Below are positions 640 to 52,890 of a stretch of DNA of 64,000 nt, piece after piece; position 1 is the stretch's first letter; every line of letters starts with the position of its first letter. A program made the translations under genes and the position numbers. A model generated the notes under the pieces. That model saw nothing but the letters and a program-made list of their open reading frames with translations, was not told where the DNA came from and ran no database searches. The DNA comes from Dipteris shenzhenensis. Lineage: Eukaryota. The stretch is taken from NCBI GenBank assembly GCA_047967505.1, contig CM106538.1; one strand, given 5' to 3'.

Positions 640-3600
640 AGCCCAATGCCAAGTCAATGAAGATGCCTCTCCAGTAAGTCTCTTCCAAGAGCCCTACACC
701 AAGTCGACCTCTCCATCCATGATCGCGTACAAAGTGATATTGAATCTCAATGTGTTTTGTGCGAGTGTGGAACACCGGGTTCTTTGCAATCGCCATGCAA
801 CTTTGATTGTCACATGATAACTGCGTAGGCTTGTTTTGCACTGCACCCATGTCCCGCAAAATCCTCCTCAACCATACTGCCTCGCAACAAGCAAAGCATG
901 CATATACTCAGCCTCGGTAGAAGAAAGAGCAACTATGGGTTGCTTCTTGCTAACCCATGACACAGCTCCAAATCCAAGTGAGAAACAGTAAGGTGTCACT
1001 GATCTCTTGCTGTCCACGTCTCCTGCCCAATTCAAGTCACAGAATCCGGTCAAGATGTTGCCCTTGGTATAGGTGATGCCATAATCAAGTGTGCCTTTGA
1101 TGTATTTCAGCACCCGCATCCCTGCCCTCCAATGGTTCTCCCGGGCTCATTGGAAAACCTGCTTAGTACACCAGTCACACAACTGATGTCCGGCAGTGTG
1201 TTGCACAAGTAAATCAAGCTGCCCACAAGCCTTCTGTACTTGGCTTCATCCACCAGTGGTGATGAATCCTCGTTTGAGAGCTTCGCATCAACCTCCATAG
1301 GGGTACCAACTGTCTCGCACTCAGCCATGCCAAATGCCTTCAGTATCTCTCCAGCATACTTCAGCTATGAAATGAAGATCTGTTTCGGCTCCTGCCAAAC
1401 TTCAATCCCCAAACAGAAATGCATCAGTCCAAGGTCTGTCATTTCAAACTCTCTTCCTAGCAAATGCTTCATCTGCGAGATCTTCTCTTCATGGTTCCCT
1501 GTTATGACAAGGTCGTCCACATAAAGGACCATGATCGTACACCTGTCTCCTTCTTTGAAAATATACAAATTTGCATCAGATGGGCTCCTCCTGAACCCAT
1601 TTCACAGAAGTAGGCATCAATTCACTGGTACCACGCTTGTGGAGCCTGTTTCAGCCTGTAAAGTGCCTTCTTCAGTTTGTAGACTTTACCTTCTGAACCG
1701 GGGATCTCAAAACCTGGTGGTTGTTCCATGTATACCTCCTCCTTCACATCTCCATTCAAAAAGGCGGATTTCACATCCATCTGAAACACGGGCCAACTTC
1801 TATGAATTGTGGTTAGTCGAGCTGTGGGAGCAAAAGTATCTTGATAATCAAAACCATGTACCTATGCAAATCCTTTTGCCACGAGCCGAGCCTTGTACTT
1901 ATCCAACGTGCCGTCGGACTTGTACTTGGTCTTGTACACCCACTTGGTTCCTATTACCTTGTGTTTTGGTGGTCGATCCACAAGGTCCCAAGTGTTGTTC
2001 TTCATTATGGAGCCATACTTTGACTGCATAGCCTCCATCCACCTATCATTGCCCTATGCCTCTTCAAGACACTTGGGTTTATCAGCACGGATGACTTCTG
2101 TCATCAAAGCATAGTTGACCAAGTGTTCCTATGCCCTTCTTTGCTCCTCTAATCTCTTGGACCGCCGGCAGTGTTCGGATGGTTCCTTCTCAATGGCTGG
2201 AGGTTCTCTGCCATCCAAAGGCTGCTTTACCCACTTCGGGAATGGCCATTGCCATTGTGGTTATGCAGACTCTTCTTCATCTTCTTTGTCTTGAATCCTC
2301 CCAAGCACCGTTGGGGGAGTTTGGTCTGCTGTTGGTGGCAGTACTGGATGGATATCCTGGTCCTAGTTGTCTGGGAAGGAAGCATCCTCCTCCAATTGAT
2401 GCAGCTGTTCTGAGAAGACCACATCGCGACTTACAATTACCTTCTTGGTAATAGGGTTATAGAGACGGTAACCCTTCGCCTCTTCACTAAAGCCCAAGAA
2501 AATACACTTCCGGCTCTTCGGTTCCCATTTGGTCCTGGTAGCATCAGGGACATGCACAAACAGTCACATCCAAAAACTCTGAAATGTGCAGCTAAAGGTT
2601 TCTTACCAGAAAAGGCTTGCAGTGGAGTCATCTCGTTCACAGCCTTCGTGTAGCTACGATCTAGGATGTAAACTGCATTGTTATATGCTTTAGCCCAGAA
2701 AGTCTTTGGCAAATCTTTCCCTTTCATCATACTCCGGCCCATCTTGTGTTCTGCTACTCCATTTTGCTATGATGTATGTGGCGGGGGTTTCTGCCTCTTG
2801 ATTCCGTGACTTTTGCAGTAACTTTCGAATTCAGTCGATGTCAACTCTCCACCTCTGTCTGATCTCAACTTCTTCACCTTCCTCCCCGATTCTTTCTCGA
2901 CCATTACATGCCATTCCTTGAACCTACTGAAAGCCTCGTCTTTTGTCTTCAGGAAGTATATCCATATCCTTCTACTGTAGTCGTCGATCAGCATCATGAA
3001 GTAGTAGGAACCACCCAAAGCTTCCGTCTCCATCTTTCCGCAGAGGTCCGTGTGAATGAGCTCTAGAGGAGCCTTTGCCCTGCTGGCCTCTTTAGGAAAG
3101 GGATGCCGATGCTGCTTGCCCATCATGCAAGCTTCACATACATCGGGCAGATCTGAAATTTCTGGTAGGTCTGCAATCATTCCACTTTTATGAAGGTTTA
3201 GATGACCAAACCTCTCATGCCACAGCTTAGTGTTCTTCACATCCGCTCGAGCACTGAAAGCTGAGAGTTCGTAAATGTTGTTGCACTGTGTACTTTTACC
3301 AACGAGCTTTCCTTGAAGATCCAGAATCTCTGCATCATTCTTATCGAATTGAACTTTGAGGTCCCGATCCGTGATCGCGGAAACGGACAACAAGTTCCTC
3401 TTGATATCTGGCACATAAAGAACATCGGACAACTGTTTTACAACTCCATCTGACTTGAGAGCAATCGTACCTTTTCCTTTTGCTAGACATTTCGCATCAT
3501 TGTCGACTACTACCAGGATGTCATTCCCTGCCGGCTGTAGAGAGGTATACCAATCCTTACGACTGGTCATGTGGCGCGATGCACCACTGTCAATGATCCA

Positions 3601-4542
3601 TGGTTCATCCACAGGTATATGAACTGTCTCCGTGCAAATCTCCTCAATTGCGACGAACAGCTCTACTGGTACTGCCTGCGCGCTGTTGCTGGACTCTTTC
3701 TTTACTCTATTCTTCTCATCTGCAATCTTCTTTCGGCACTCATTCTGCTTGTGCCCTGCCTTGTTGCAATAGAAGCACTTGATCTTCTTCTTTCTCTTTT
3801 TATCATCAGAAGAAGATGGGTTACTAGAGTCCTTACCCTTACCTTTCTTTGATCCGGTCCAAAAAGCCGAATCTTCTCCAATCCTTGTCTTTTGACGCAT
3901 CTCCTCCTCCAGAAGCATCGCGCTGAAATCCTCAAAGTTGAGGGGCGGATTTTTGTTTTGCGTATTCAGCGCCGTAACAATACCGTCATACTTTGGTGGG
4001 AGAATCTATATACACCTTTGTGCTAGATTCTCGCTGGTGATGGTGATGCCAACCGCAGTCATCTGATCGCGCAGATTCTTCACCTTGGTGATGAACTTCT
4101 CTACTGCTTCAGACTCAGACACCTTCTCGTTCGCGAGTTGAGTCTCCAGATTCTGAATCTACATCTGATTCATGGTCTCGTACTGATTCTTCAAGACCGT
4201 CCATGCCTCCTCCACTGTGGTGACATGTTGAATTAACCCCATGACGGAATCACTAACACTGCAGACAATAGAACACAACGCATCTGCATTTCTTCTTGTC
4301 CACTCGAGAATCTCATCTGCAGTTGGTACTATCTGTTGTCCTGCATTGGCTGGATCCGGTCTCACAATCGGCCTCACGTCCACCCCAGTAGTAGTGTCCC
4401 AAAGCTCGTATGCGCTTAGGATGGTCTTCATCTTGAACTTCCAGAGTGGATAGTTAGAGCCATCCAACTTTCCGCTTTCGCCAAACGCGGTGGGATTCGC
4501 AGTCTTGCGGGCTGGGCCATCTCTCACAATCTGCTCGTACAT
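640..4542 (-). pseudogene. copia gag-pol with frameshifts and stops
   Basis: LDGSNYPLWKFK (gag), CFYCNKAGHKQNEC (zinc knuckle), WIIDSGAS (protease), LWHERFGH..CEAC, HTDLCG and LRSDRGGE (integrase), LYVDDL (RT), LSSTEAEY and CDNQS..TKHIEIQYHF (RNase H), split over many ORFs. Confidence 0.93.
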
Positions 4543-4578
4543 AGAAACACACTACCAAATCTTCTTGCTAGAGTCTAG

Positions 4579-4590: not shown

Positions 4591-5323
4591 TGTAAGAAAA
4601 TAATAATACGTCTGTGCTCAACAGATAACAGGATCTCGTACGCAAGAGAGAAAACAAGATAGTATGGAGAATCAAAATTTTGATTACTGTAGAGCTGATA
4701 CAATAGATGGCGCTGCCTCCCAACCGTGCGCTCCTGTGAAAGAAGCTTCGATGGTGTGCTGGAAACAGTGGAAGACGGAGGCTAGATGCTAAGGAATCAG
4801 GGTTGCTGTAGCCCTTGATGAAATGGGCTTCACGGGCTTGCTCTTATATAGCCACCAGTCGTAGTCGGTTAGGCTCAATTGGGTGACCGACCTAGTCCAC
4901 CCAAAACGGTCGATTGGGGGTCGGTCCTGAAATAGGCCACCGACCATATGATAGAACCGGTGCGCAAAATAGAGCAACTGACCTACGGACACCATTCGGC
5001 CCAGAGCCATCTAGGATCATCTGAGGCTGCAAATCGGGCCCCGTTACCCGAGAGTGGGCTGCCCCGGGAAATGCTCCGTCTACCCTCAGTGCGGTCAGTT
5101 AAGGGATGCCTTCCCGCACTTGCATGTAGCCTAGTTGGCGGTGTGCCAACTCTATCTAAAGCCGTCCAACCATCAGGCCACACATGGCCCCCATCTGGTG
5201 TCCAAACCAGGACCTACCGGATAACTGAGCTACTCAAATGCCTTCTCCTCATATGGGGGGCTTACAAGTAGAGTTAGCTGGTTCCCGTGTAGTTACACGA
5301 GAGTGGAGCATTGATATCTAACA
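4591..5323 (-). repeat. 5' LTR of copia A (733 bp)
   Basis: TG...CA termini; adjacent to the PBS; near-identical to 1-599 and 35893-36616. Confidence 0.95.
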
Positions 5324-5724
5324 TAGGGTTTCTAAACTAGTTTTCTCTCCTATTATCCAAGCTGTAATTGTTCACATATTCTAATATGTCAAATCAAGCC
5401 GTCTTGACATACTCAATGATGTAATCCAATGGGATCTTTGCCATCTTTGAAGACCTGTGTACCAATAGATTCCCCACACATTACATTGATTAATATGATA
5501 GGTTAGTTGTATGATAGTTATGGCTAGAGGAGGTAGGCATTGGCAAGGAAATGCATTTTGGTTGGTTTAGGATTGACTGCAACCCCCACAAAATATAACC
5601 TTTAGTAAATACGAAACAACCACCGCGCTTGTTTCAGTAAATCCCAATCAATAAATCCCAAACAAGGGAAAATGTAAATCCCAAATAGTATAGTAATCCC
5701 AAACAACCACCGAGCTTGTTTTAG

Positions 5725-14104: not shown

Positions 14105-16509
14105 AAAATGTTGGCCAAGTCTAGACTCTTTAGAATCTTTTTAAAGGAGCAAGGTACCCTTTACAACAGGGGCTCCTACACCTTCCAAGTTCTATAATGG
14201 AGCTGAAGGGTTGAAATCTGAAATGCTTTCGTCTGTGCAGCATGATAAAGTCTGTATTGCGGGTTCAAGCACATTCGAAGGATGAAGAAGCCGCCTTGAC
14301 TGACATTGAGGATTCTCTTAGGAGTAAGGAATCTGTAAGAATCTTGATTGGTTGACTGAAATGAAAGCTTGTTGAGACTTAGAAATGATGGTGAGCTCTT
14401 CAACGAGCACGTTTTCCCACCTAGTTTGGTCGTAGAAAGGGCGCTTCTTGTATGACTTCTAGGTTCATGGGTTGTGGCGTTCAAGACCAAGTTCTTTATA
14501 CTACCAATAGTTGCTGCCAATTTAGCCGGAGTTCTAAATTGACAGTGCTAATTGCTTAGTTGGTCATATATACAGGGTGCTTGTATGACTTTCAGGTTCA
14601 TGGGCTGTGGCCATTAAATATATATGGGGACCAAATTCACTTGCGCTGCTGACTTACCCAACTTCAACGTAATTGGGTTCCAAATCGATAGTTGAGGCCC
14701 ACCTCATTCGGTCATAGAGTGCCTATGCATTTTTCGCTAAGGATGCTCATTTGGGAGAGACTAAAATGAAACTATATAACTCTTCACGATCAGATGTAGC
14801 TTGAATGAAGAGGAATCTGGACTACTTTTTTATTAACCTTCAATGCTAGCCTTTGTCACGGTTGACCCTACCCTTCACCTCTAGAGTGTTGATAGATACT
14901 CCCTATGAATATCATAGTATAAATGGATGCTCAAGTATGTGTCGGCGTGTGGATATGTATTGTGTGAGAGCATATGTTTATATCATTGGCTACACCCACA
15001 ACCTAGGTCAATAGTGTAGGGCTCAATGGATAAAGTGGCTTTCCCATACCACGATGAGACCCATTGTGGGTATACCAAGGATCCCAAAGTGACTCCAATT
15101 GGTTAGAAATCGCCCATGTCCCTAGGATTCTAAAACCCACTATAGAGTTTAAAGTTTCAAATGCAGGTAGGAATTAAACATCAATTTAGAACAGAGTGTT
15201 TGCAAATTTTGCAACTAGTATTGGTGAATTTGGTCCCCACATGCCCAAACTCATCTTTTGAAAACATAACACATTGCAATTTCAATCTCATGAGAATCAC
15301 ACTTAGGTTGAAAACCATAATCTCCATCACGCATAGCAAGGACTAGCTATTATGAAATCCCAAGGGATGTCATTAGTGTCCATGAACAATGATATACTCA
15401 CAAAATGTGATGATAGTATTGGGTGTTGTGGCTTGTAGGTTTATGTGATGGGCCTTGGACCTTGAGATTAGATGTGGCTTAGATGTAGTACCTACCCCTA
15501 CGGTTGTCATTGATCAATTCTGCAATGCTCAAGTTGCAAAATTGCAGCTTTGACTAAAGGGTGATGACTTGATACGAGGATTCTACGGTGGGAGCTAAGT
15601 TTGATGCTCATCCCTATGGTGTTCTAAGCAAGGTGATTTCTTAGTACAGAGTGACTTAGGTAGTTGTAGTATACTAATGATGTTAAGCGCTTCTTATAGA
15701 CAAGTTGTACTAAACATGTTAAGTTCTCGTTGTGTATGCACTTAGGCGGCCTTATTAATGCCTTCTTTCCTCTCTTATGATTGTTGTGTATCATCTTAAA
15801 TCCATGTAGCCTCTATTACATATTGGTCTTATGGTCTCAATTCATCATTCATCTTGTAACTTTGAAAACTATTCAAAAACCCATCATCTTTCCCTTTATA
15901 GCACTAATTTTGTCGGAGATGACAGAGAATGAGAGCAAGGCTTATGCGGTTTTATCATATGCGAGTAGGACTTATGTGATGAGAGCACGACTCATGGGTT
16001 TTATCTTAATGCCCCAAGGAGTGGCAACGCTTGCTTTGTTCGAAACACGGTAGTAAGAGAGACACACAAGATGACTAGTAAAATCTGATAATGTAAAAAA
16101 AAACTATATATATGCATCTTCCCAATTATTAGGGTTACAGTTAGATTTTGTTCCATCAATTTTCTATGGATAGGTACAATTTATGGTGTCCTTGAATTTA
16201 CTCCCTCTTAACTTGCACCTGATAAAAGGGTAATTAATAAAGATTTTCATATTTTAACACCATATTAGTAATTTTGGGATCATGTTCAATTGCAACATGA
16301 TTACACAAGGCACCTACAATAACTCACCTTAAATTATTTAGTATTTGATAATGAAAACTTGAAAAACATTCCAATGCATAATGAAAACCTCAAATTTAAC
16401 ACTGCAATGCCATACAAGAGAGTTAACTTTGTTGAATTATCAACACATTTATATAATAGTTGGTGTCAAGATATAAATGCCATTTGTTTAAAGCAATGAC
16501 CAAAGTAAA

Positions 16510-16980
16510 GCTAAGCTTGTTATCATCATCATGACATTGTCAATGGTAATTGTTATGCATTCAACCAATAGGAAGATAATGAGCTGAAGCTAAGCTTGTT
16601 ATAATCATCATGGCATTGTCAATGGTAATTGTTACTCATTCAACCAATAGGAAGTCAATGAGCTGAACTACTCAATACAAGCCCTTATTTAAAGAAAACA
16701 AAACCTTAAGACCATTGAGTATTAGCTCAAGGCCAACTTCCAAGAATTGAACACGTGAAATTGCTCAACCAATAGGAAGACAATGAGCTGAACTACTCAA
16801 TACAAGCCCTTATTTAAAGAAAACAAAACCTTAAGAACATAGAGTATTAGCTCAGGGCCAACTTCCAAGAATTGAACACATGAAAGTGCTCAACCAATAG
16901 GAAGACAATGAGCTGAACTACTCAATACAAGCCATTATTTAAACAAAACAAAACCTTAAGACCATTGAGTATTAGCTCAA
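16510..16980. repeat. compound tandem repeat: 79 bp x2, then 125 bp x~2.5
   Basis: Units start at 16510 and 16589, then 16668, 16793 and 16918; they share TCAACCAATAGGAAGACAATGAGCTGAA; array abuts the transposase stop codon. Confidence 0.9.
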
Positions 16981-19480
16981 TCTGCACTCTTGTCGTTTAC
17001 TTGATCAACCCCTTCTAGGCTTGCTTCTGCTTTCTCACGCACGGTAGGTGGAATTTTGATCTTCTTGGGCTTCTTCACTCCTTTCGGTGTCCAACTCCAT
17101 ACTATTGAGTTTGCTTGCTCCCAACGTGTAGGATCTTTGTCATTGCACATCCAAAATTTCTCCCAACAATTTACATACACTTCTTCCTCGCTTGCATTCT
17201 TCTTATGGGAACATGGTGCCCAATACTGTATCAATACCATGTTGTATTCTTTAGAGGAAGCATTGGATTGAATGTCTGACTTGGCTTCACCCAACCAAAT
17301 TGGATATATATTGTCGCTTGGCCTCACAAGAACAAAGTCACCCTTTTTTACATCTATAAGAGGTTGGAATGCATCTTTTGGCTTGTTACGTTGTGGACCA
17401 TAGTAGTGGTCTTCCAATGCCTTTAAACCCATGAAACCTTCATTTTCGGTGCTGGTGTTATGCTCTGTTGCATGTGTTGTCTTTGGCCAAAAGCCTGAAC
17501 ATATATCTTGAATTTGCATAGTTGATGCAGATTCTGACAATGCATTGATCATGTTTTCCCAATACTGTATCACTGGTGTAATGTATATAGAATAAGGATC
17601 CAGTGAGCCTTTGTCAATGCGATGCTTGTTCCAATATTTTATATAGTCCTTTATGCCATTCACCACTTGAGCACTATCTTTTAAGTACTCACACATTGGA
17701 AGTACTGGTGGTTCCCCAATTGGCAACAAAGATTTTCCAAGAGTATCTATTTTCCACAACTCTATGCCACCACCCTTTGGCATCCAATGATCTTGCGTGT
17801 GATTCATTTTGTAATGCATTACTGAAATGTCATCTTGCATGAAAAAACGAAAATGCAATGCTTTGAATGTCCAATAAGTTTATCCTGGCCTTCACATAAG
17901 TAACCATCAATAAACCCTTTAAAGTCTAGAACCTATCCTAAAAGGGGCAAGCCTTGAGCTTGTGCACTTGTTGAAGGTTTTCATAAGATGTGCTAGAGTG
18001 AGAGAATGACTTGTCCTCAACTGCTTTGAAAAACGACTAAACAATGCATCAATATCTTCATGGGTATGACCAACCATTAAGAAACCCATCTCTATCATTA
18101 AGAAAACCTGCCTAGCCACCAACAAAGATAGGCATGCAAAAACATATATGTTTTTGTTCTTCGATCTACAATTGTCTAATTGCAACAAGAGGCAAGGTGG
18201 AAGAGTTTTGAAAGATGTAGTGGATGTGTTATATGTGCTTGCAAGCACTTGTTGAGCATAAGGATTTGACTTCCCATCCATTGATAGATGAATATCCATG
18301 GCTGTCCTTGAGGTCACACAATTTAGGAGCTGGCTTGAAGTATTTAAAGAGCTATGTACAAGATCACCATACTGATACTTATCTTCTCTTTCCAAGTCAC
18401 GAAAACACAATGCTAATGATCCCACGGTAAAGTTTGGGTGTGCGGGCCAAAGACCAAGTGAAAAATGTCCATATGCTTCTTGTCCATGTCCATGTGTTAG
18501 CATTCCAGTCAATGATATTGGCAACTTATCGATATCTTTTGCTCTAACTTTGAGCCTCGGTATGGCTATCTTCTATTGATCCATCTTATCATGTATGATG
18601 CATAAGACTTGTTGAGGGTCCTTCTCTGATTTGTAACGCCATGAATAATATACATGCCGACAACTCATTTGTTGTTTCATATGCCCCATCCTCTCCACAA
18701 AGAGCTTTTCACATTCTGTTGGTATCTTAGTAGCACCCAATTTCGACTTGATTGCACTACAAAGGCTACGTGACTTTGAGAATGTGCTTGTATGAGAAAC
18801 CGAGACATGCTTGAAGTCTGTGTTCCAAATTCTATTGAAGGTCAACTTTGGAACCTCCTTGTACCCTAGCTCTTTCATGGTCAGATTGATCTCATGCATT
18901 ATGTCCACTTGTTTGTACATATCTAGAATGACAAGTTGTGTTTCTCTCATGCCATCTATTGTTGTTTGAGCTTTATGCGGCATCCTTTCAGCATTGTTAT
19001 TCACAAAGTCACATAATACAGCTCTTGCCATCCCCACATGATCCCACCCTTTTCTAATTTTGTTTCCATGCATGGCATTTGTGCATCCAACATTATGTTG
19101 CTCCTTGTACCTATAGTATGAAGTTTTAGAAATTGCGTACAATTCATACCATGTCGTGCAACATATTTCCCTCCCATCAAAGCTAAACAGGTCATGTGAC
19201 ACAACACCTTTTGAATCAATCCGCATAGCATAAGTGAAGCTATTGAAGATATAGGTCATTCGATTCTCCAAGTTCATGCTCCAAAATTCCACTCTCATTT
19301 GCAAAACCAAATTACGATCTGCAATCTAGCAACACTTCAACTCACAACAACCTATAAGTGCCACATCTTCATACGTGCACTTCTTCATCAGATGGCATTC
19401 AATTTCCTTTCTAGGCTTGCGATTGACCATATGATATTTTCTTTTTGTGCGAAGTGGTTTGACATTTAGGCGCTAATTGG
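16977..19480 (-). pseudogene. Sola-like (DUF7869-type) DDD transposase, disrupted
   Basis: CCELKCC N-terminal cluster, CIIHDKMDQ, LLLQLDNCRSKNKN and FLMVGHTHEDIDALFS catalytic-type motifs; ORFs 18573-19310, 17919-18524 and 16977-17858. Confidence 0.78.
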
Positions 19481-21937: not shown

Positions 21938-22336
21938 TATTGGAGAGGCTTACTGTGAGCTATAGCGCCACCATCACCATCGCCCTCACGCAGTCTGACT
22001 CTGCCATCACCATCGCCCTCACGATCAGAGTCTGCACACAGACCGAGTCCTCCATCACCATCACCCTCACGCTCTCTCGGAGTCTGCATCAAGTACTGTC
22101 TCGAGGTCTACCTCGCCCTCACGCTCTCTCTCGGAGTCCTACCCACACTTCTCAATGCCATCTCCCTCGGTGTCTGCATGAACGTCTTCATCATGCACAG
22201 GGACATGTTGGACGATCTTCATCTATTGCTTGTTCTTGGACTTTGTTGGAGTTGTTGTCTGCATCAAGATTTTGGAGGTCGTCTGCAACACTCGCTCCAT
22301 CGCCATGAGATAGTGTCATCTTGGAGAGGAGGTGGG

Positions 22337-22659
22337 CTCTCTCTCTCACACTCTCTCACAGCCGCTCTCTCTCTCACGCTCTCTTAGAGTCTTTCACTCT
22401 CTCTCACACTCTGTCTCTCTCTCTCTCTCACGGTCTCTCTCTCTCTCTCTCGTTGACGCTCTCTCTCTCTCTCACGGTCGCTCTCAAGCTCTCTCTCTCT
22501 CACGGTCGCTCTCTCTTTCTCTCACGATCGCTCTATCTCTCTCTTTCACGCTCTCTGTCTCTCTCTCTCATGCTCTCTCTCTCTCTGACACACACTCATG
22601 CTATCTCTCTCTCTCTCATGGTCACTCTCAAGCTCTCTCTCTCTCTGATATCACTCACG

Positions 22660-22737
<78 letters not shown>

Positions 22738-22890
22738 CTCTCTCTCTCTCTCTCTCTCTCATGCTCTCTCTCTCTCTCGGTCTCTCTGATATCACTCACG
22801 CTCTCTCTCTCAAACTGTCTCTTTCAAGTCTCTCTCTCTCTCTCACTGTCAAAGTCCTCTCTTTCACCCATGCCCTCTCTCTCTCTCTCT
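22337..22890. repeat. compound (CT)n/(CA)n microsatellite
   Basis: Long interrupted CT runs with CA runs near 22680-22733. Confidence 0.95.
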
Positions 22891-23258
22891 CAGGATACTA
22901 GATATAGCAGTATGAGCTCTTTTAACCCTCAAGAATTCAAACAAATTTTGAAAATTTCCCTTAAGACTAATTCCAAAATTTACACCAAGATCGGTTTTAA
23001 AACCGATCTCGATGGAGGATAGGAAAAAAAAGTTAAGTAATTGGTCCATAATTCAAATTTTGAAAAAATTCGAATTAGTTTTTTGAAATTCCTCGTCTTA
23101 AAGCTTTTTGTACAAGCTAAAGTTTCAAATATTATGTCACGTAAATTTGGGGATGCTAGCATTTATATTGTACCTAAGTTTGGGGTTACATATTTGTCTA
23201 ATTTACTTCACTAGAATGGAATCTTTCGTTAAGCTTAACTTCGAATAGAGGATGGGGC

Positions 23259-24124: not shown

Positions 24125-26783
24125 ATGGCATGTAAGAGTACCGAATTGTCGACTAAGAAGTCAAAAGGAAGGAGAGTAAGTGGAAAGACTAGTGATAGTA
24201 GTGCAACCAACAAGAAGAGCAAGCCCTCCCACAATGTTTTTAATGGTTGTAATGATCCACAGTGGGGATTGTATGTGGACACATATAGTGAAAGTGGAAA
24301 ACCTTTCAAGAAGGTCCACTTGTTTGTTAAAAGAAATGATTCTTCGGAATTCGAAGATGTGGGGCATGTAACATGAGTAAATAAGGGTATAGTGGGTCAA
24401 GAAGGTGATGAGGCCATCTTCATCCAAGTCAGCTTAAAAGTCTACTACCTATCACCAGCACATTATGATGAATCAAAACATAAGAAGAACAAGAAAGATT
24501 CCATGCAGAAAATGGGTTGGAATATTGTGATCGATGAAAACACAACTCCGGACATGATTGTTGACAATATCAACATAATTGGTCAGATGATTAAAATGCC
24601 AAGAAAAATAGGTGAGGGTAATGTAAAACAAGCAAATGCTGAGGAGAAACATGAAAGAGCCTTGGTGACTATCATTGAAGCAGAGCCATTGAGGATAGCA
24701 CCATCAGAAGAGGACATTATTGGTTGGAAGGAGAAAGGAGAGGGGATACACAATTTTCAACAGTACTATCCTTTTGGTCTAGATGGGTTCTCAATCCTTG
24801 TTTTAAATTGTACACAAGCACCAACTAATTACGTGTATAGGCCCCTAGTGGAACAATACGTTTGCAATTTGGTCAAAGAATTCTGCATGAATCCAAGAGA
24901 TTGCTTCACAAAAGCAGATGTGATGCCTTATGATCCAAACACTAATTTGCCACTAACCAATGTGACGTTTAAAGACATACACACCTATGCTTATTGGGTG
25001 CTATCAAGCCAGCACTCAATTGAAGCAGCTAAAATTTTGCAAATGAGTGATTTTCTAGTAGTTAAAGAAATCAAAGGTGTTTATGCAAGGAGAACCGCAA
25101 GAATAGTATTGAATTGTCCAAAGCATATGTGTCGGCTAATTTCGCGAAAGGCGAATGAGGAACTTCAAAAGAACATGAAGGATGCACCTTATGCAGAGCA
25201 ACTGAAGCAGCTACGAAGTTAGTGGGTTGCATTTGGGAGACCAGAGAAGCCTAAAGTTGGAGCCACCAAAGGACACCAATCACGAAAAGAATGGGATGTA
25301 AGCATTTCTTCTAAAATTTTGTTTTTAAAAGTTGCTATCTTTGTGATATTATTTATTAACTATACAAGATTGGTTTTAAAACCGATCTCAAGAGAAGTAT
25401 GTGATTCCATGTTGTTTTTGCTTTCTCTTCCTTGTATAAGCTTAGTTTTAAAACCGATCTTGAGAGCAGTATGTCATATATGCTATATTGATGTTGTTAT
25501 ATGCAGGATTTTATTGATACTGTGCATTTGTCTTTTGGAAAGAGTTTCAACCAAAAAGATGTTCATGTGATTATATGTCCAAATGATCTCTTCCAAGGAT
25601 GGATGGACATCATGCATAGATATGTTAAGGGAAATTTGCCAAATCAAAAGGGTCAAGTATCGGTCCAAGAGATGAGCACAACACAAATTCCTACTTTTGG
25701 TAAAGTGGGAGAAATCAATCAAGCAAAGGGCACTAAAAGACTAGGATTGACAATGTTTCGCTGTTTGTTGGGCATGGAGGACTCTATGATATCCACTTTG
25801 CAGCATGAAATCTTAGAGAAAAATGTGATTTTATCTAGTTCCAAGGCATCAAGCATCAAAACCATGGATGAAAGGTGTTGGGAAATGAAAAGTGACAAAG
25901 TCCTTCACCTAGAGATTGCTACTTTCCTCAAGGCAAAGTCACAAGACAATGTAGGTAAGAGTTGGGAGGAGATGAAACTATTTTATGACATCACTGATGA
26001 TAGGTATCATACTATATTTAGATATTACAACGAGTGGTTTAAAGACTGCTTAAATCCCAGCAGCAAGATGACAAATGCAATGCTACCTCAGACTGCTTTG
26101 ACATTCCTTACTTGGATTCATAACTCTAAATTTGGTACCTCCAGTCAAAGTGTGAAAGAAATCCATGGAAGACCATAAATGTGGGAGGCAAGTTAGAGGG
26201 ACTAGAGAGTGTGAACAAATACACAGAAGAACAACGAATTGGAGTAGTTGTTCTTGATACACAAGAATCGCTAGAGCAAGAGTGGAACGTGTCTTTCTTT
26301 GAAAGATTCTTTGAAATGCTAAATGAAATAACACATGAAGCACCTAAATACGGATTACTTGCCTTTGTTTCAGTAAAAAATGTATCACATTTGTTGGAAG
26401 CAATCAAAGGCTTACAATTGCAATTCAAGTATCAAGTGGGTGCGTATGACACAGAGTCTTCCCAAGATTCTTTGTCTAAAGATGCTCTTGGAGATTTGGT
26501 TGTTTCGAGTATGGTTTACAAAGAATCTTGTGATGCAATAATAAATCAATTAAAGAAGAATTCGACCAAGGCATCTGTATGTTTTGGATTATATGACCAG
26601 GATTCCAAGAACGGTGAAGATACTGATGAGGAGGAATCCCCCAAGCATTTGCAAAATGCAAACTTTATCTCTTCTTTCATTGAGTACTTCTATCGGCCAG
26701 ATCAATGTGTTATTGATGCCTTCACAGAGGGAATTGCCACCTTAGAGTCATTGAAGAAGAAGGACACTTGCATTTGTAGCTAG
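24125..26783 (+). pseudogene. cargo gene: ParB/Srx-like domain plus degenerate beta-class N4/N6 DNA methyltransferase-like domain
   Basis: Same frame from 24125 to 25297 with stops at 24374 and 25220; GT-AG intron 25298-25506; frameshift near 26178. Motifs YVYRPLVEQYVCNLV and YWVLSSQHSIEAAK (ParB-like); IGVVVLDTQE and FIEYFYRPDQCVIDAFTEG (MTase-like). Confidence 0.55.
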
Positions 26784-27638
26784 GAATCAAGATGAGATTG
26801 AAGTGAATGGCAGGTGCTCAGATCTAATCTCCGCATCTAAAGAGTTAACAGTATGGGCAAACCTAGACTCTGAGGATGAAACTATAGAAAACCAAGAGGA
26901 ATCGCATAGTGCAGACATGCAGACTTCAACTCAGTAACAATTGGCAAGACCGACGGATGTACAAGAAAGACCAATAAACCCTTGAGGATATTGACGAAAT
27001 GGCCAAGCAAATATTCGCATCCAAAAAAGCAGGTCAAAAGTCATAAATCTTCAAGGATTTCAGAGGCATTTATGTAAATATCTTTGAAACTGATAATGCT
27101 TCCAAAATTGAATTGTTCATGTAGATTTTGTAATTGCTATATTATTAGGTCAATAAGAACGATTATTGAACTTAGTCTGTCATCCTTTAACAACAATGAC
27201 AGGATATGATCAGTTTTAATTCCGATCTTGGCTTTCAGCATGAAAGGCTAAGAACGGTTTAAAAACCGATCTTATGAACTCCCACACAAAGAGCATGAGA
27301 GTAAGATGAAAGACTAATATCGATTTTATAATCGATCTTAACATCTCCCACTTGGTGGACTATGAGATGTTGAGATCGGTTGTAAAGCCAATCTGTTGTT
27401 CGGAAATATAACATACAATTCACTTTTGATTTGTGTATGGAAATGTAATGTCAGATTTGCATTTGAATTATGATCAATGCTTTTTTAACTTAGTAAATAC
27501 AAATTGTATCCTCTAATGTGATGAGACTCTTATGAGAATTGGAGATATAATCTAATACACCAAAATACTTAGGTTACCATTGTCAATGTAAATGAGAGAA
27601 TATAATGTAGATTTAAGCTCACATTTTTAAATGTAAGC

Positions 27639-29461
27639 ATGGAAAAAATTCATTGAATCTTGACCTCACACCTTGATACTTTTGCATGCCATGATATAAA
27701 TGGAAATCCCCTGCATATAGAAATACCACACAGGGAAAAATCAGATGAGTCAATGGAACATATTCAATGTTCTCCATCTATGACAACAAAGAAATTACTT
27801 GTACTTGACCTGAATGGAATTTTGCTCCTCAAGTCCAATAAACCTTCTGATAAACACAAAAGCATACAAATTTATAAGACAACATGGATTGTGCTTCGAA
27901 ATGGATGTGTTCAATTCTTGGATAGATTGTTTGAGCACTTTCATGTGTGCCTATGGTCAACTGTGATAATCAAGAATGTGAATTACATGGTTCATTTGAT
28001 GGAGAAGCTTGCAGCGAAATGATTTCCGTTCTACAAAATTATGGGGCAAGATCAATGCTACAAATCACTTACAGAGATATTAAAGAGACCGGACAAGCCA
28101 GGCGTTCAATGCATGTTTAAGCCCTTGCTTGCCATTTGGACAAATGATAAAGAGTTAAATCCTAGTAACACCTTGCTTATTGATGATTGTCCGTTTAAGG
28201 GCTGTGTAAACCCAGAAGAAAATGGTATATATCCAGATACTTTTGACATAGGTGAGACTGATGACATATTGAATGTTGAACTTCCCCCTTATCTCCTCCG
28301 ATTGAGAGATGTATCAAATATAAGAAATATTAGCAAGCTTGACCGTTATGGAAATGACCCAATACAATACAAATCATCATCAATATATGTATTTCAAAGA
28401 AGTGATTTTGGAAGGGGAGTTCACTACAAAGTACATAAAACACTTCTTGGAGGAATCTGCTCCAAGCCAAAAGATTAGTTTGACCAACTCAAGTCATTTT
28501 GAGATCGTCCAACATAGTAATCGAATGAGAGATGCTTGTGAGCCAGATAAGGAACAATCATCAAAATCCCAAGAACAAGAGCTCAAAACATGCCCAGCTA
28601 CCTTGGATTCTTCTAAACTAGATCTGTTGAAGAGGATAAAGCAGCTAAATTCTTTGAATGAGATGCAAGCTTGTTTGTATGCCTTGAAATTGGGTTACGA
28701 TCAATCATATATTACTGGAACTTCTGCCAAAGTGTATATAACAAGACTACAAGCTTCACTTGCATTAAACATGCAATAAATCTTTGAGAATGGTAATTAC
28801 TCATATTATTTGCTTATTTGTGATGCATCATTTTTGTAAATTTCCTTCTCATTATTTATGTGTAACTATTTAATAACTCATTATTTTTTTCTTTTACACA
28901 CAAGGTTCAAAGACATGCTGAAAGAATTGAAGAATAAAGTAATTCTTCACTTTGATTCTAAGTTGAATGGCGTGTGGGATCAAGATCTACCAAACCAATT
29001 GCTTCTATATTCAAGCTCTCAATGGTGTTGAATTTAAAGTGAAGACATCATCGATTGTAGGAGAAAGTTATGGCTTGCTTGTACATATGAATGTAAAAGC
29101 AAAGAAAGACCTTTTGATATTCAATGGCCCAAAGTATGATTACTAGAGTTGGATTACTCTTTGCTCTTACCTTCCAAGGTTTAGGACCTATGGCCTCCTC
29201 GAAGATTCAAAAGTTACACCAAAGGAGGACACACAATACATCGTAGGAGATGTGTTGTATGGTAATGTAGCTGGATACATCAATAGCTCTATTCATTGTA
29301 AGGGTAGAATAAATGTTATGTATGTATATGACTCTAGAGTACCACCTTGGATCGAAGACAAATGGGATGTTTTACCTACTGATATGTTAGGATTTATTGT
29401 TGTCTACTCTCTTAGAGATATCCATGCAGGAGAGGAGTTGTTTTGTGAGTATGATTTTTAA
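27639..29461 (+). pseudogene. cargo gene: FCP1/SCP (NIF) HAD phosphatase domain followed by a SET domain
   Basis: KKLLVLDLNGILL, LRNGCVQFLDRLFEHFHVCLWS, NTLLIDDCPFKGCVNPEEN (FCP1); probable intron ~28793-28904; VKTSSIVGESYGL, GNVAGYINSS, LRDIHAGEELFCEYDF (SET); several stops and frameshifts. Confidence 0.75.
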
Positions 29462-30640
29462 GATGTAAAACCTTTGTCATGATGTTGGTGTACTCCCATT
29501 TTAATTTAATATGTTGGTGCTTAATACCATCTTTTTCTTGAGAAAATTCACATTGTTTGGATTCACAATGATGGCAATTATATGAGCATGTTTGGAATAT
29601 TTCAATGGAATGATATAATATTTAGCCATATAAAAACTCAAAATCATATTCAAATACATGATTGTTTCTATTAATTTCCTCCACATCAAACCAAACACCT
29701 TTTATATTTAAAGATAATGATATAGTGTTGTCTATTAATATTTCAATGGAATGATATAATATTTAGCCAAATTAAAACTCAAATAGATCTTCGAATATAT
29801 GAATTTATCTAAAAATTTCCTTCCAAAACAACCAAAACGCCTTTGATTTTTGGGATTTAAAAAAAAATGGGAGTAGGGATTTTCCCAAAATTACTAATAT
29901 AGTGTTTTTTTCTAGATAGAATGTTGCATCATAGCAACAACAATGATAAAGAACAAAGGGTGCTTTATAGAAGTTATTTTTGGATTTTTCTAAAATAAAA
30001 GGTTGCATCATGGCAACAAAATTGATAAAGAAGACAAAAGTGATAAAGAAGGAAAATTAGAATTATTGCATATATTGCATAAACTACAACAAAAAAAATG
30101 TACAAAGTATACAATTAAGCCTTCACACTTCCTCATCTTAACTGTAGCTAGTCTTTGCAAATACCAAGTTCATAATAGAAACTATTTGATTTGTAGAGGG
30201 AAAGTGGGTGGGTGGAGATATCAACAATTGATGAAGCTTAAATTACTTAAATGAAACAACACAATAAATTGTGGATAATAAACAATGAGGCTAGGAATTG
30301 TATAGGTTGAGCAATAATAAATCCTTGTATGGATTTAAAGATGATTATTGGTCTTATCCTCTTGGATTTGCATTTGATTGAGAAAACGCAGTGGTTGATT
30401 TCTTTGGAAGTTGGTCAAATTAGAATGAATATCATACTAGAATATGATTATGCATCCATGAATGGTTTGAAGACTTGGTTGAACTCGTCATATAACACTA
30501 ATATTAGCACAAAAGTACACTATCGATTGTTTACAAACATTGCTTTGAAACATGATAGTTGCAAAATATATCATGTCTACTTGAAAATCTTCTTATATAT
30601 AAAAAAGACTATTCTTGACTTTAGATACAAAGTGACGTAA

Positions 30641-31252
30641 ATTTATATTTTTGCAAAACATGGCCAGCTTGTATTAAAGAGGGGGGTGGGGGGGTTAGAC
30701 CCTAAAAAAACCTCAAGTTCAAAATTTGTCAAAACTAAGGGGTAGAACTGCAAGGCCTATGCTAAAAGCAAGTGTGGACTCCCAAAAGGGTAGTATTTTA
30801 AACGACCAAAGCAGCAGCCACCTCAGCCAAAGCATGGCCAACCAAAGATTCTAGCTTCCCCACCACCATAGATAAGTTAGACAAAGAATATATTGCCATC
30901 CTTACCAGCACAGTTTCCATAAACCCCCCAACTATCGATCCATGAAACGCCTTTTGGTCTAGATAGACCAACAAATAGCCACTCTGATATATGGCGAGCA
31001 GGATGACAATGTAGACAGGAGCCCTACTAGAACCCCTAACATTTCCAGCTTCCAATATAGAATTTAGACATCAAACCCACAACCCATATTGCAACTTCCA
31101 CTTTCATCCACACATTTTGAGATGTCAGACAACACCAAACTAGATGCTACCCAAACTCAATCGCTCTCCCACATAGAGGAAAACATGGATTCAATTGAAA
31201 CCTCTTGGCCAGCATGACCCAAATCGGTAACCATTGATGCACTACTTTTCAA
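30641..31252 (-). mobile_element. 3' part of an L1-type LINE (zf-RVT region and tail)
   Basis: Minus strand reads *KVVHQWLPIWVMLAKRFQLNPCFPLCGRAIEFG*HLVWCCLTSQNVW, a CCHC zf-RVT pattern; A-rich tail near 30641-30655. Confidence 0.7.
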
Positions 31253-31941
31253 TGTTAGATATGCTCAATGCCCCACCCTCTTGGTAACCACTAGTGGTCC
31301 AAGATGCTCAAGTTGTAAGGCCCCCATATGAGGAGAAGCCATGTGTGAGCTTGGGACACTGGATGGATCGCATGTCAGATGAGACCGTTGAAGGTAGAAA
31401 GGAAATCTATGTGAGTCTAGCCTATGGGCTAGGCAGGGTAGGTAAGCTAGTAGCACAACGAGGCACATTGTCTTGATTGTGTGGGAGCCCCTTACTCTTG
31501 CTGGGGCTTGGGGGCCAGCTGGCCGAGGTCCCAGGGGGCCAACGAGTCCCTTGGTGGGGGTTCAGGAGCGAGAGCCTGAGGCAACAATATAAGGAATATT
31601 CCTAAATATTCCATGGATGACTAGTTGGTTCCACTGACTAGGTTGACTAGTCGGTTCCACCGACTACGTTGATCCGACTATTGCCCTCATGGCTATAAAG
31701 AGGCGACCTTCCTAGTCCATTGTACCAGATCAGATCTTCCAGCAGAGCTCTTCTAGTTAGTAGCTCTTCACCTAGTATCTGTTTAGATCACCATCTAAGC
31801 TCCACTGTGGGAGCGCACAAGTGGACGGAGCCATCATCTGTACTACATTAGTATTGAAGGAAAATTTTGTTCATCTCTAGTTTGCTGTGTACTCTCTATT
31901 CTTTGTTCAGTTTTTGTTCCACCGCGCCGTGTAATTTAACA
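31253..31941 (+). repeat. 5' LTR of copia B (689 bp)
   Basis: TG...CA termini followed by the PBS; its start is repeated at 35872-35892. Confidence 0.9.
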
Positions 31942-34900
31942 TGGTATCAGAGCCCAAGTGGCTCTAAGGATCAAAGAGTAGAAGAGAGGCGAGGGCTTCA
32001 ATAGCATACGGAGTGATGGCAATAGGAAGCGGTTCGAGTTCAGCAGTTGCAGCTGCATCAACTGCACCAACAACCCAAGAGTTGAAGATTCGGCCACCAG
32101 CCTTCCAATATGTTCCAGGCCATAGTTGCCTTAGATGTAGGCTAAATTAAGGTCAAAACACTATTAGTAGTACTTGTAACCAAGGCACATAGAGCATCTA
32201 TGTTCCTACGTTTCCAAGCTCGTAGAAGGTCGGCATTAGGAGGTATCGTACTCCCCAGATTTGTTGGGTCAAGGGTTCCTTGTGGTTCTAGGTCAGTCCC
32301 CAGTACTGTCTCCAAAAGCTCATATGAATCCAGAATAGCAGTAATTTTAAACTTCCACAGAGTGTAGTTTGTACCATTAGTCAGTATGAGACGCGGAATC
32401 AAACAAGGATCCAGAACCAAGAGAATCAGTTGGCAGTTGAGAAGTTTAATGAAGGAGAGACAGTGGAGGCATTCATAACCCGAATCAAAAATCTGCATGA
32501 CCAGATGGCTGGTGCTGGGATACAAAAGACTAGCGAAGAGCTAGCTCGGTGGTGTCTTCGGATATGTCCACCAAGGTTTGATGGATTGGTAATAGTGTTG
32601 AACACTCAGGTGAGTCCCCAACCATTGTCATTTGAGGAGTTTTGTGCTTTACTTATGGAGGAGGAATTGAGGCTTAAAGCTCAAGATGGAGGCGGCAATG
32701 GGGATGCTGCGTTCTCTGCCACTGCGAAAGGCAAAGGTGGTTCCTCCACCAAAGGTGAGTCCTCTACTAGTGGTGACAAAAGGAAGAAGGGTGGCAAGAA
32801 GAAGTTTCAGGGAGAATGCTTCTACTGAAAGAAGAAGGGCCATGTGATTGCAGATTGTCAGGTCAAGAAAGCAGATGAAAAGAATGGTACCCTGAAGAAG
32901 ATAGATAAGGGAAAAGAGATAGCTAACACAGTGAAAGCAGAGTTGGATCTATTTTTAGCCATTGAGGAAGAGTGTTCCTCAGTTCAAGAAGCTTCAACCA
33001 CTGATTCATGGGTGTTAATATGTAGTGCCTCCCATCACATGACTTGCAAGAAGGGTCTATATTGTTCCATGCATCCTCTACAGGAACCCATCACCATGAT
33101 GGTTGGAAATAACACAAAATGCCATGTTGAGGGTACAGGTATGGTTTCATTTGTTTCTATAAATGAAGATGTTAAGAAACTATCTAATGTGCTGTATGTT
33201 CCACAAATCAAGAGAAATTTGCTATCAGTTGCTTCCATAACTGACCTTGACCATGAGGTGAGGTTCAACAAGACAAGAGAAAAAATTCTAGATAGTGCAG
33301 GTAATCTTGTTGGCACAAGAGTAAGGAGGAGCAACCTGTCTGAACTAAGTGCTCTTACAACCTCCGCTGGAGTGGGCACAAGCAGACTTTGGCATGAAAT
33401 ATTCAACCACATTGGATTTGCAGTGCTAAAGGAGATGCAGAAGCAAGGTATGGTTGCTCACTTACCTGCAGTTGCAGAAATCAATGAACCATGTGAAGCT
33501 TGCATGATGGGCAAGCAACAGAGAAAGGCATTCCCACAAGAAAGCAAGAATAGAGCAAATGCTCCTCTAGAGTTGGTGCGTGTTGACTTGTGTAGTAAGA
33601 TGCCTACACAGGCCTTGGGGGGATCTTCCTATTTTTTATTGATTGTCGATGACTATAGTAAGAAGATGTGGGTGTACTTTCTTTGTGAAAAGGCTCAAGA
33701 TTTCGGTAAATTGAAAGAATGGCTATAGCTTGTTGAAAATGAAATAGGGAGAAAAGTGAAGAAAATCAGATCAGATGGTGGTGGTGAGTCTATTTCTATA
33801 GAGTTTGGAGGCTTTTGCAAGAGCAAAGGGATCAAGCGACAAACGACAACATCACATAGCCTCAACAAAATTCGGTTGTTGAATGCCGAATGCGGACCAC
33901 CATGGAGATGGGGAGGTGTATGTTGAAAGGTGCTGGACTGCCAAACCACTTTTGGGCTGAGGCTGTCAATACTGCAGTTTACATCCTTAATCGCAGCTAT
34001 ACAAAGGCACTCAAAGGTAAAACACCACATGAGGCTTACAACGGTAAGAAGCCATCTATCTCCCACTTCAGAACGTTTGGGTGTGAATGCTATGCGCATG
34101 TACCAGACAAAGAGAGAAACAAGCTACAACCAAAAAGCACCAAATGTATCTTCTTAGGCTATTGTGATGAGAAGAAAGCCTATAAGTTGTATGACTGATA
34201 GGCAAAGAAGATCTCAGATGCCTATGTCTATTGAGCAGCATGCAAATGGACCAAGGCAGTCTTAGAGAATCGAGGAGCAAAGGAGGGCTTCTGCTCACAT
34301 AATCAATATGGCCTTGATGGCTGAGATTATTGCAAAAGTAAAGGAGCCTGCAAGTTTGGAGGAAGCACTTGCAGACCGAGATTGGAAAAACACTATGCAA
34401 GTAGAATATGACAGCATCATGAAGAATGAAACTTGGGAACTAGTAGATCGACCACCTAACAAAAGGGTTATTGGCACCAAGTGGGTTTGGAAGGTAAAGT
34501 ACAAGGTCGATGGGACTTTGGAAAAGTACAAAGCTAGTTGGTTGCACAAGGATTTTTGCAGATTGAAGGGTTTGATTTTCAGGAATCTTTCACTCCGACT
34601 ACCAGAATGACCACTATTCAAACAGTACTATTGGTGGCTACTCATAAAATGTGGCCAATTTATCAAATGGATGTTAAATCAACATTCTTGAATGGTGACC
34701 TCAAGGAGGAGGTGTACATGGCTCAGCCACCTAGGTTTGAGGCTCCCCATTCTGAGAACAAGGTATGTAAGCTGAAGAAGGCTCTGTACACGGGCTGAAA
34801 TAGGCCCCAAGAGCATGGTACCAACGAATAGACAAATTCTTTCATAAATTAAACTTCAAAAGATGTGCCTCAGATGCTAACTTGTATGTGTATAGGAAAG

Positions 34901-51800: not shown

Positions 51801-52890
51801 AGGTAAACAGCCCAGGAAGGGTAGGACCCCAAACCTGTATTCATTGCCGATGATCTCACCCCCAACAAGGAGAACACTTTAATAGCTCTCCTACGAGAGT
51901 ACAAAGATTGCATGGCCTGGAAGTCAACCGACATGAAAGGGGTGCCTCCCGAAGTAGTGTAGCACACACGATCCCCATGCTAGATAAGGCCAGTTCATCA
52001 ACGCCCCTACCCTATGAATCCCAAATACGCACTCATAGTGAGGGAGGAAATCCAGAAACTCATAGATGCAGGATTCATCTATGAGATTGAGCATACGGAT
52101 TGGGTATCACCCATCATGATAGTCCTAAAGAAAAATGGAAAAATTAGAGTATGAGTGCATTTGAAAAAGGTTAACGTTGCCACTAGACGTGACCACTACC
52201 CTAGGCCTTCCCTTAAGATGATGATTCTCGGGAATCGAAGAAGGACTGAGCATTACATTCCTATCATTGTATTTTGTAACTTTAATTGTTGTTGGCATTA
52301 ATATTTTCATTCACTATTATGTTCAAAAGCATGCGAATTCATGGAACATGTTTTGGAAAGGGTAGCTAGAAAGAAAGCCTATAGCTTCCTAGATGGGTTT
52401 TCAGGTTACAACCAAGTTTTTATCGCCCTGCAAGACCAACATAAAACGGCCTTTGCGACAATGACTGAGTGGGGTGTGTATGTGGCTAGGGTGATGATAT
52501 TCAGATTAACCAATGCCCCTGCCACCTTCCAATGGATGATGATCACGGTATTCAAAGAATATCTGAGAGACTTTGTGGAAGTCTTCTTGGATGACATTTG
52601 TGTGAACTCGACGTGGGATGACCACCTGAAATACCTTAGGCTCGTCCTCTAGAAGTGCTGCTTATACCACATATCCCTGAACCCTCTTAAGTGTCACTCT
52701 TGGCCACATCGTATCCCGGAATGGAATCTTTATGGACCATAATAAAATCAAACTCATCTTGGAGTTACCACCCCCCACCAACACCTAGGGACTCCAATGA
52801 TTTACTGGCCACATGGGCTATTACAGGAGGTTTATGTTGTTCTATGCGAACATAGCCCGTCTATTATACAAATTGCTAGTATCCTTTGAG
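48850..52890 (+). pseudogene. gypsy gag-protease-RT remnant (RNase H and integrase missing)
   Basis: LDGKAGQWY..WEILRKAF (gag), AILDGGAGVSV (protease), EEIQKLIDAGFIYEIEHTDWVSP, FLDGFSGYNQ, LTNAPATFQ and VFLDDI (RT). Confidence 0.88.

Follow-up and report, generated by a model that had tools for sequence, protein, structure and literature searches.

The question raised by positions 27639-29461 of contig CM106538.1 (Dipteris shenzhenensis, assembly GCA_047967505.1) is what kind of gene places an FCP1/SCP-like phosphatase domain (Pfam family NIF) immediately ahead of a SET domain, the fold of lysine methyltransferases. The region was analysed within a stretch of 64,000 nucleotides (nt), hereafter the window, which is eukaryotic and plant-like in character. 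In the original prediction the two domains were read as one fusion protein encoded by a single transposable-element gene and joined across a likely intron at about 28793-28904. Our analysis suggests a different arrangement. We consider it fairly probable that the 27.6-29.5 kb region is the 3' part of an accessory gene in a dead transposon, and that the NIF and SET modules are alternative 3' ends of this gene. The features on which the argument turns are as follows:

27657-28478, plus strand: NIF (FCP1-homology) exon, with the Pfam match at 27792-28325, DLNGIL at 27807-27824, an in-frame TGA at 28020-28022 and LLIDD at 28173-28187
28324-28779, plus strand: linker that follows a frame change, its C-terminal motif at 28708-28752 being conserved, with a TAA stop at 28777-28779
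28793-28904, plus strand: intron-like interval lying 3' of that stop, read from the sequence, with GT at 28793-28794, a pyrimidine run and AG at 28903-28904
28905-29461, plus strand: SET exon, with GYINSS at 29273-29290, a catalytic-type Tyr at 29450-29452 and a TAA stop at 29459-29461

Both domain calls were confirmed by Pfam. With the TGA at 28020-28022 taken as X, the translation of 27657-28475 matches the NIF profile (PF03031) over positions 1-160 of 160 at 49 bits (E 6.8e-13; cutoff 21.8 bits), and its two halves scored apart give 31.1 and 16.9 bits. The SET profile (PF00856) is matched by 28967-29458 at 24.9 bits (cutoff 22.4 bits) over profile positions 43-104, i.e. in its C-terminal half only. 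The motifs reported earlier (DLNGIL, LLIDD, GNVAGYINSS and GEEL..Y) are all present at their places, the latter two at 29261-29290 and, as GEELFCEY, at 29429-29452; the reading frame ends GEELFCEYDF-stop (29429-29461).

A second copy of the arrangement was found in environmental DNA. When metagenome contigs were scanned with the SET alignment, 34 loci were recovered, one of which, L001 (5915 bp), is collinear with the window: 24914-29461 corresponds to L001 23-5576 in the order up1, up2, NIF, linker end and SET (up1 and up2 being the upstream open reading frames (ORFs) described below), with 35-45% identity in tblastn and tblastx. L001 is about 55% diverged from the window and more intact. It retains ORFs of 519 amino acids (aa; up2/up3 region), 346 aa (NIF and linker) and 192 aa (SET), and the NIF ORFs of the two copies are 45% identical. 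Its Pfam scores are 58.1 bits for NIF and 37.2 bits for SET, the latter over the full length of the profile; other SET relatives reach up to 44.3 bits. Because the order of the modules is kept in so diverged a copy, we regard NIF and SET as parts of one conserved accessory unit. The idea of one transposable-element gene is thus borne out as far as a single strand of a transposon-like element and a conserved order are concerned, but not as far as it implied a single protein.

The copy in the window is a dead pseudogene. At least seven lesions were recognized in it: three or more in-frame stops together with four frame changes. The stops lie at 25220-25222, where L001 has Gln, at 28020-28022 inside NIF (TGA; Ile in L001) and at 29144-29146 inside SET (TAG; Q, K or D in relatives). 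Two of the frame changes fall close to 26130-26178 and 26755, a third lies in the interval 28364-28708 (about 28365-28390) and the fourth close to 29005-29017; at all four sites L001 or the relatives keep one frame. The ATG at 27639, at which the gene had been proposed to start, runs into a stop five codons on. As the window copy is dead, its interest lies in marking the family and not in any activity of its own.

The boundary between the two modules is similar in the two copies. The ORF comprising NIF and the linker ends with a stop in both, TAA at 28777-28779 in the window and TGA at 4607-4609 in L001. These stops sit 5-8 codons past a shared motif (15 aa, 67% identical), beyond which no similarity is seen until SET begins. 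In the tblastx comparison the window linker is read in frame 0 to 28364 and in frame 1 at 28708-28752, against a single frame of L001. A donor-like GT lies 3' of the stop in both copies (TAA..ATG/GTAATT in the window and TGA AAG/GTAGAT in L001, the slash marking the putative splice site), and GT is absent from the final 15 codons of the L001 ORF as well as from the final 13 of the window ORF. The likely intron noted earlier does have its GT and AG signals, but the window TAA precedes the proposed donor by 14 nt. The L001 NIF ORF is in frame 2 and its SET ORF in frame 0.

Several observations suggest that the SET module is a spliced terminal exon. Acceptor-like sites stand directly ahead of the SET homology in the window (AG 28903-28904), in L001 (ttttcag/GA, phase 1) and in a further locus, L002 (tcttttgcag/AT, phase 1). 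The first Met of the L001 SET ORF is found only at residue 34, though the sequence is conserved from the acceptor on. Seven predicted proteins (P0008-P0013 and P0019) share the module from the same residue and have unrelated N-termini. Another, P0022, matches L001 2661-3368 and then 5010-5411, so that the NIF exon is skipped. Finally, an upstream L001 donor (AAC G/GTGCTA), its NIF acceptor (tatgcag/AT) and its SET acceptor are all of phase 1. From the acceptors, the late Met, the shared module start, the skip in P0022 and the matching phase-1 sites, we infer that NIF and SET are alternative 3' exons of one transcription unit.

According to the model that we propose, the accessory unit would consist of N-terminal ORFs, an acidic linker, NIF with its own stop, an intron-like gap and a minimal SET terminal exon. 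The upstream phase-1 donor would be joined to the phase-1 acceptor of NIF, or NIF would be skipped and the donor joined to the phase-1 acceptor of SET. The outcome would be two proteins with a common N-terminal part. A comparable economy is known from the En/Spm (CACTA) element, in which tnpA and tnpD, two proteins of one transcription unit, are produced by alternative splicing. The likeness lies in one unit giving two products; however, those of En/Spm are a transposase and a DNA-binding protein, and the splicing proposed here is a prediction.

A number of points weigh against this model. Every splice site in it was read from sequence alone, and the window SET acceptor is of phase 2 and not of phase 1, which we ascribe, as an assumption, to decay. 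P0022 is itself a gene prediction, chimeric with a cytochrome P450 (P450), and its locus may simply lack the NIF exon. The pairing of NIF with SET is known from two cases, the window and L001: a NIF hidden Markov model run on six-frame ORFs of the 34 loci matched L001 as the sole locus, and of the 12 loci in which SET is preceded by 1500 nt or more, 1 carries it. L001 is not free of lesions either (in-frame stops at 122-124 and 1878-1880), and its contig does not extend to a transposase. That the DUF7869 gene of the window, described below, and the plus-strand gene belong to one element rests on one 24-mer pair and the spread of a palindrome. Lastly, P0006, P0007, P0016, P0020 and the L012/L022/L024 group are predicted as stand-alone proteins of 170-270 aa with a Met start, and the window ATG at 28915, which aligns with the first Met of P0007, would fit a separate SET gene as well.

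The last of these points lead to the alternative that survives best, although we consider it rather unlikely, namely that two independent genes lie next to each other: a multi-exon gene ending in NIF and a stand-alone SET gene with its own promoter in the gap, as in viral SETs. The closure of the NIF-linker ORF by a stop in both copies is what such neighbours would display, and so are the Met-initiated relatives and the Met shared by P0007 and the window. The SET ORFs in the CACTA loci of the L012/L022/L024 group have a Met as early as residue 4 and form a stand-alone frame ahead of the transposase, and the Atlas feature matches are to small SET proteins, of which many belong to giant viruses. 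This alternative leaves unexplained why the L001 SET ORF has no Met before residue 34 while being conserved from the acceptor, and why, in L001 and L002, the module comes right behind canonical acceptors. Moreover, the gap in the window, which would have to hold the promoter, is merely 125 nt long, and gene models join the SET exon to upstream exons at exactly that boundary.

The fusion itself could be rescued by a splice removing the stop or by recoding, and the common strand, the kept order and the intron-like signals between the modules would agree with it. We consider this very improbable. In both copies the stop precedes the donor-like GT, and the terminal codons of both NIF-linker ORFs offer no earlier one. 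Among the relatives scanned, L001 aside, the domains were also not seen to travel together: NIF was found in none of the 18 longer SET relatives scanned and in 1 of the 34 SET loci, and SET in none of the three long NIF relatives, which carry PF03031 only. A single fused NIF-SET protein is not supported, because the NIF ORF stops before SET and SET appears to be a separate 3' exon, lying in another frame in L001. The original prediction had named two separate genes in intact copies as the finding that would speak against it, and in L001, the single more intact copy available, the fusion indeed fails.

We turn now to the modules themselves. For the SET module of the window, a phmmer search of 1.84 billion representatives revealed 35 relatives, 17 of them at E<=1e-10 (best 1.2e-30, 45% identity), which far exceeds chance expectation. 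The only named relatives of the family are unnamed products of the liverwort Calypogeia fissa. In the 18 longer relatives that were scanned, SET was listed in 14 and above the cutoff in 13; others came with RVT, Tf2 SH3 or P450 domains. A comparison of the window SET with longer proteins gave 94 candidates and no significant match, which is weak evidence owing to the word-index search, and a scan of viral contigs with the SET alignment gave 47 pattern matches, none of which was confirmed. In the gene predictions P0008-P0013, P0019 and P0022, near-identical SET modules are joined to unrelated parts (Tf2 SH3, reverse transcriptase (RT), P450 and others). These joins look like chimeric annotation of a multi-copy transposon exon.

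The residues of the family were counted in a 42-row alignment. The glycines of the GxG motif are present in 39 and 41 of the 42 rows, and the window itself reads S-Y-G, with Ser for the first Gly. The SET consensus includes an N-H-S motif; here Asn is kept in 41 rows and Ser stands at the position of His in all 42. Towards the C-terminus, G183 and E185 are invariant (42/42), the catalytic-type Tyr is found in 40 of 42 rows, and the proteins finish 1-3 residues past it. NSS had been suspected of altering the activity of this copy; it is present, but as Ser occupies the His position in every row, it was ruled out as a sign of decay of the window copy and is better regarded as a trait of the family.

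The fold is predicted to be that of a genuine SET domain. The L001 SET ORF, modelled with AlphaFold2 (AF2) from the 42-row alignment, gave a predicted local distance difference test (pLDDT) score of 83.4 and a predicted template modelling (pTM) score of 0.78. Foldseek compared this model with PDB at 350 matches of E<=0.001, with target-normalised template modelling (TM) scores of up to 0.65, the leaders being SET7/9, SETD8 and MLL1 (probability 1.0, E about 1e-7). We also asked whether viral SETs are closer than cellular ones; this was rejected, as the Foldseek E-values are similar in PDB and BFVD. A profile search of PDB retrieved 38 SET chains, the best being Legionella LegAS4 (5czy, 8sr6). 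Giant-virus SETs (BFVD matches) and LegAS4 resemble the window family in having a small SET core devoid of pre-SET or post-SET Cys clusters, and LegAS4 reads YINFS where the family reads YINSS, so that His is missing from both (5czy has Phe there). They differ in sequence (15-25% identity) and in that the window family ends 1-3 residues past the Tyr. LegAS4 and viral SETs are active enzymes. By analogy with LegAS4, NSS need not abolish SET activity.

In a quick, unrooted tree of the family, the window falls into a 6-row clade (support 95) with L001, P0007, P0014, P0008 and L002. All 11 CACTA-linked rows included lie across a split (support 97) from this clade.

The active site of the NIF module is also modified. 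Motif I of these phosphatases is defined as DxDx(T/V), comprising a nucleophile Asp and an acid/base Asp. The window has DLNGIL and L001 has DLNGVL, i.e. the first Asp is kept and the second is replaced by Asn. The acidic pair of motif IV is present (LLIDD in the window, LLVDD in L001; LLIDD, FLDD or LLIDN in plant relatives). The nearest relatives of the window NIF are cellular plant proteins, likewise D-x-N-G, at 29-31% identity, and among the plant NIF domains aligned, motif I reads D-x-N-G in 3 of 4 and D-x-G-G in 1 of 4. Three of these cellular proteins, P0003 (Bidens), P0004 (Dorcoceras) and P0005 (Tarenaya), belong to the same Pfam family and have DxN(G) for DxDxT together with (L/F)(I/L/V)DD; they differ from the window NIF in being cellular genes without SET and without transposon context. 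The substitution, which had likewise been suspected of altering activity, is real but not peculiar to this copy. Since L001 and three of the four plant domains share it, DxN was rejected as a sign of decay in the window and represents a family-wide state. In haloacid dehalogenase (HAD) phosphatases, loss of the second Asp leads to slower turnover; the DxN module may for this reason be a weak phosphatase or a phospho-peptide binder.

The wider SET family appears to be transposon-borne. Transposase_21, DUF4218 or DUF4216 were detected on the SET strand in 22 of the 34 metagenome loci, in 21 of them downstream of SET (Pfam on 128 ORFs of 30 loci; tblastn). In these 21 loci (L004, L006, L007, L008, L010-L012, L014-L024, L027, L029 and L030) a small SET ORF of about 200-300 aa is followed, after some 140-1000 nt, by a CACTA/EnSpm transposase in the same orientation; L003 differs in that its DUF4216 part precedes SET. 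Where 1000 nt or more of sequence follows SET, a CACTA transposase is present in 16 of 17 loci, or in 13 of 14 when four near-identical contigs are collapsed into a single entry.

The element in the window is of another kind. Transposase_21 is absent from the window by tblastn, and the transposase-like gene present there belongs to DUF7869. We interpret it as a DNA transposon of some 13.65 kb that is old and has been inactivated, with candidate ends at 16256 and 29906 and the following parts:

16256-16279, plus strand: candidate left terminal inverted repeat AACACCATATTAGTAATTTTGGGA, 23 of 24 positions identical, inverted, to 29883-29906
16508-16980, strand not assigned: subterminal tandem repeats with periods of 79 and 125 nt (Tandem Repeats Finder (TRF), 92-94% matches; self-blastn)
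16977-19325, minus strand: decayed DUF7869 transposase-like gene, broken into three stop-to-stop ORFs, one of which (17919-18572) matches PF25273 at 129.7 bits
19552-27393, strand not assigned: 22 copies of the 20-bp palindrome GATCGGTTTTAAAACCGATC with at most 3 mismatches (pattern search and repeat analyses)
24377-25222, plus strand: up1, with an in-frame stop at 25220-25222, collinear with L001 23-367 at 35-39% identity
25492-26783, plus strand: up2/up3, split by a frame change in the window and one 519-aa ORF in L001
29596-29851, strand not assigned: direct repeats inside the right end (29596-29709 versus 29737-29851, 82%; self-blastn)
29883-29906, minus strand: candidate right terminal inverted repeat, the inverted match to 16256-16279

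The 24-mer pattern is matched exactly twice in the window, where the expected number is 0, and the inverted pair encloses both genes. Neither a clear target-site duplication nor a second copy was found for these candidate ends. Within the DUF7869 gene, the ORFs 18573-19325 and 17919-18572 abut in one frame, which implies an in-frame stop between them. DUF7869 was not mentioned in the literature searched.

The palindrome GATCGGTTTTAAAACCGATC is perfect and has 22 matches against 0 expected, none of them elsewhere in the window. Its copies cluster in the space separating the two divergent genes and within non-coding intervals of the plus-strand gene, at the probable introns 25368-25459 and 27208-27393. 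The array may represent protein-binding sites of the element or a nested repeat resembling a miniature inverted-repeat transposable element (MITE). The palindrome is absent from all 34 metagenome loci and does not link L001 to the element of the window.

The upstream ORFs that would provide the common N-terminal part gave few leads. For up1, up2, up3 and the 519-aa ORF of L001, no family was found in Pfam, PHROGs, NCBIfam, PDB (sequence and profile) or in tblastn against phages, and the AF2 model of up2/up3 was unusable (pLDDT 37.7). The Atlas offered leads only, at 0.90 to unnamed clusters and with PF01555 at rank 13 (0.86); Pfam detected no PF01555 upstream of SET. The up1 ORF (24377-25222; L001 2-427) has a conserved stretch, YW(V/I)(L/I)S..HSI.AAK(I/R)L, within which one L001 stop falls. 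We take this motif to resemble the ParB/sulfiredoxin box, a likeness for which neither a profile nor a fold lent support.

It is highly unlikely that the two modules are functionless captured fragments of host genes, decaying as pack-type cargo: the seven or more lesions of the window copy, the cellular plant proteins nearest to NIF and the occurrence of SET in chimeric gene models beside RT, integrase and P450 parts would suit this explanation, whereas the open frames of L001 for NIF (346 aa) and SET (192 aa), only 43-45% identical to the window and hard to account for without purifying selection, the conserved order of five blocks, the retention of catalytic-type SET residues in 40-42 of 42 rows and the consistent position of the SET family beside transposases all speak against it.

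Elsewhere in the window, putative copia-type gag, zinc-knuckle and integrase ORFs were noted by eye at 2767-4551 (minus strand) and 32142-33728 (plus strand), apparently two elements on either side of the region. A short similarity of 31252-31354 to 502-599 and 5228-5324 (self-blastn) suggests a common long terminal repeat sequence. On the plus strand, spurious ORFs rich in Ser and Leu arise from a long CT-rich simple repeat at 21959-23022 (TRF period 2, about 248 copies at 22337-22844). Apart from the RT part of P0013, whose RVT_1 portion matches a reverse-transcriptase-like stretch at 52044-52884, the N-terminal regions of the longer SET relatives have no match in the window outside SET. At 58622-62383 (plus strand) lie ORFs that, by eye, look similar to exons of an MCM-family helicase and probably belong to a host gene bordering the transposon-rich stretch.

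Transposon-borne SET genes are already in print. They have been acquired by HarbingerS and by MuDR families of Phytophthora (Kojima and Jurka 2014, Repbase Reports, cited in PMC12730594), which, as far as the descriptions available to us go, resemble the window in being DNA transposons with a SET lysine methyltransferase accessory gene beside the transposase. Compared by description, they differ from it in the type of transposase (DUF7869-type here, CACTA/EnSpm in the wider SET family), in the host, which is plant-like here, and in the NIF partner. In the Plavaka (EnSpm/CACTA) elements of the red alga Bostrychia, the accessory gene PAG2 combines an N6-adenine DNA methylase (PF01555) with SET, and PAG3 combines a ParB-like domain with a 2-oxoglutarate (2OG) oxygenase and adjoins inverted or tandem repeats; both were also found with Zisupton and Fanzor elements (bioRxiv 10.1101/2025.02.11.637652). 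According to the parts of that report consulted, PAG2 shares with our case a large DNA transposon, a multi-domain accessory gene with SET as its last domain, a cassette that crosses transposon superfamilies and internal repeat arrays. On the other hand, neither PF01555 nor ParB was found here (Pfam, PHROGs, NCBIfam, PDB, tblastn), apart from the weak Atlas lead to PF01555, NIF is unreported for PAG2 in the same parts, and the organisms are distant. Other chromatin-related cargo, i.e. TET/JBP genes, is carried by fungal elements (PMC12730594, bioRxiv 10.1101/2025.02.11.637652). In the titles and abstracts of the literature searched, no SET gene with CACTA or EnSpm was found in land plants. A single literature search, covering 8.4 million papers, found no NIF partner in a transposon.

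As for function, we suggest that the accessory unit would modulate how copies of its own element are transcribed and packaged in chromatin. Lysines on histone tails would be methylated by the SET module, and the DxN NIF module would act as a slow phosphatase or as a binder of phospho-Ser, e.g. in the C-terminal domain (CTD) of RNA polymerase II. Going further, and this is a speculation to which we give little credence, one may imagine a land-plant transposon lineage with a self-targeting chromatin toolkit, in which a NIF effector (phospho-CTD binder or slow phosphatase) and a SET effector are mounted on a shared module that recognises, ParB-like, the element's own array of 22 palindromes and so sets its own transcriptional and chromatin state; as the same SET family forms the upstream ORF of many CACTA elements, SET capture would then be widespread, though undescribed, in early-diverging land plants.

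Transposons with chromatin enzymes of their own are rare, and they illustrate how a mobile element can influence silencing by its host. To these cases the present analysis adds a SET family beside CACTA/EnSpm transposases in 22 of 34 environmental loci, with a named liverwort relative, a branch of this family in an element of another kind, accompanied by a DUF7869 transposase-like gene, and a conserved partner module of the NIF/CTD-phosphatase type. The two domains of the Dipteris locus are best described as neighbouring, probably alternative, terminal modules of a decayed transposon accessory unit. If they are alternative ends of one gene, they would constitute a design, open to testing, by which two activities are directed to the same target.

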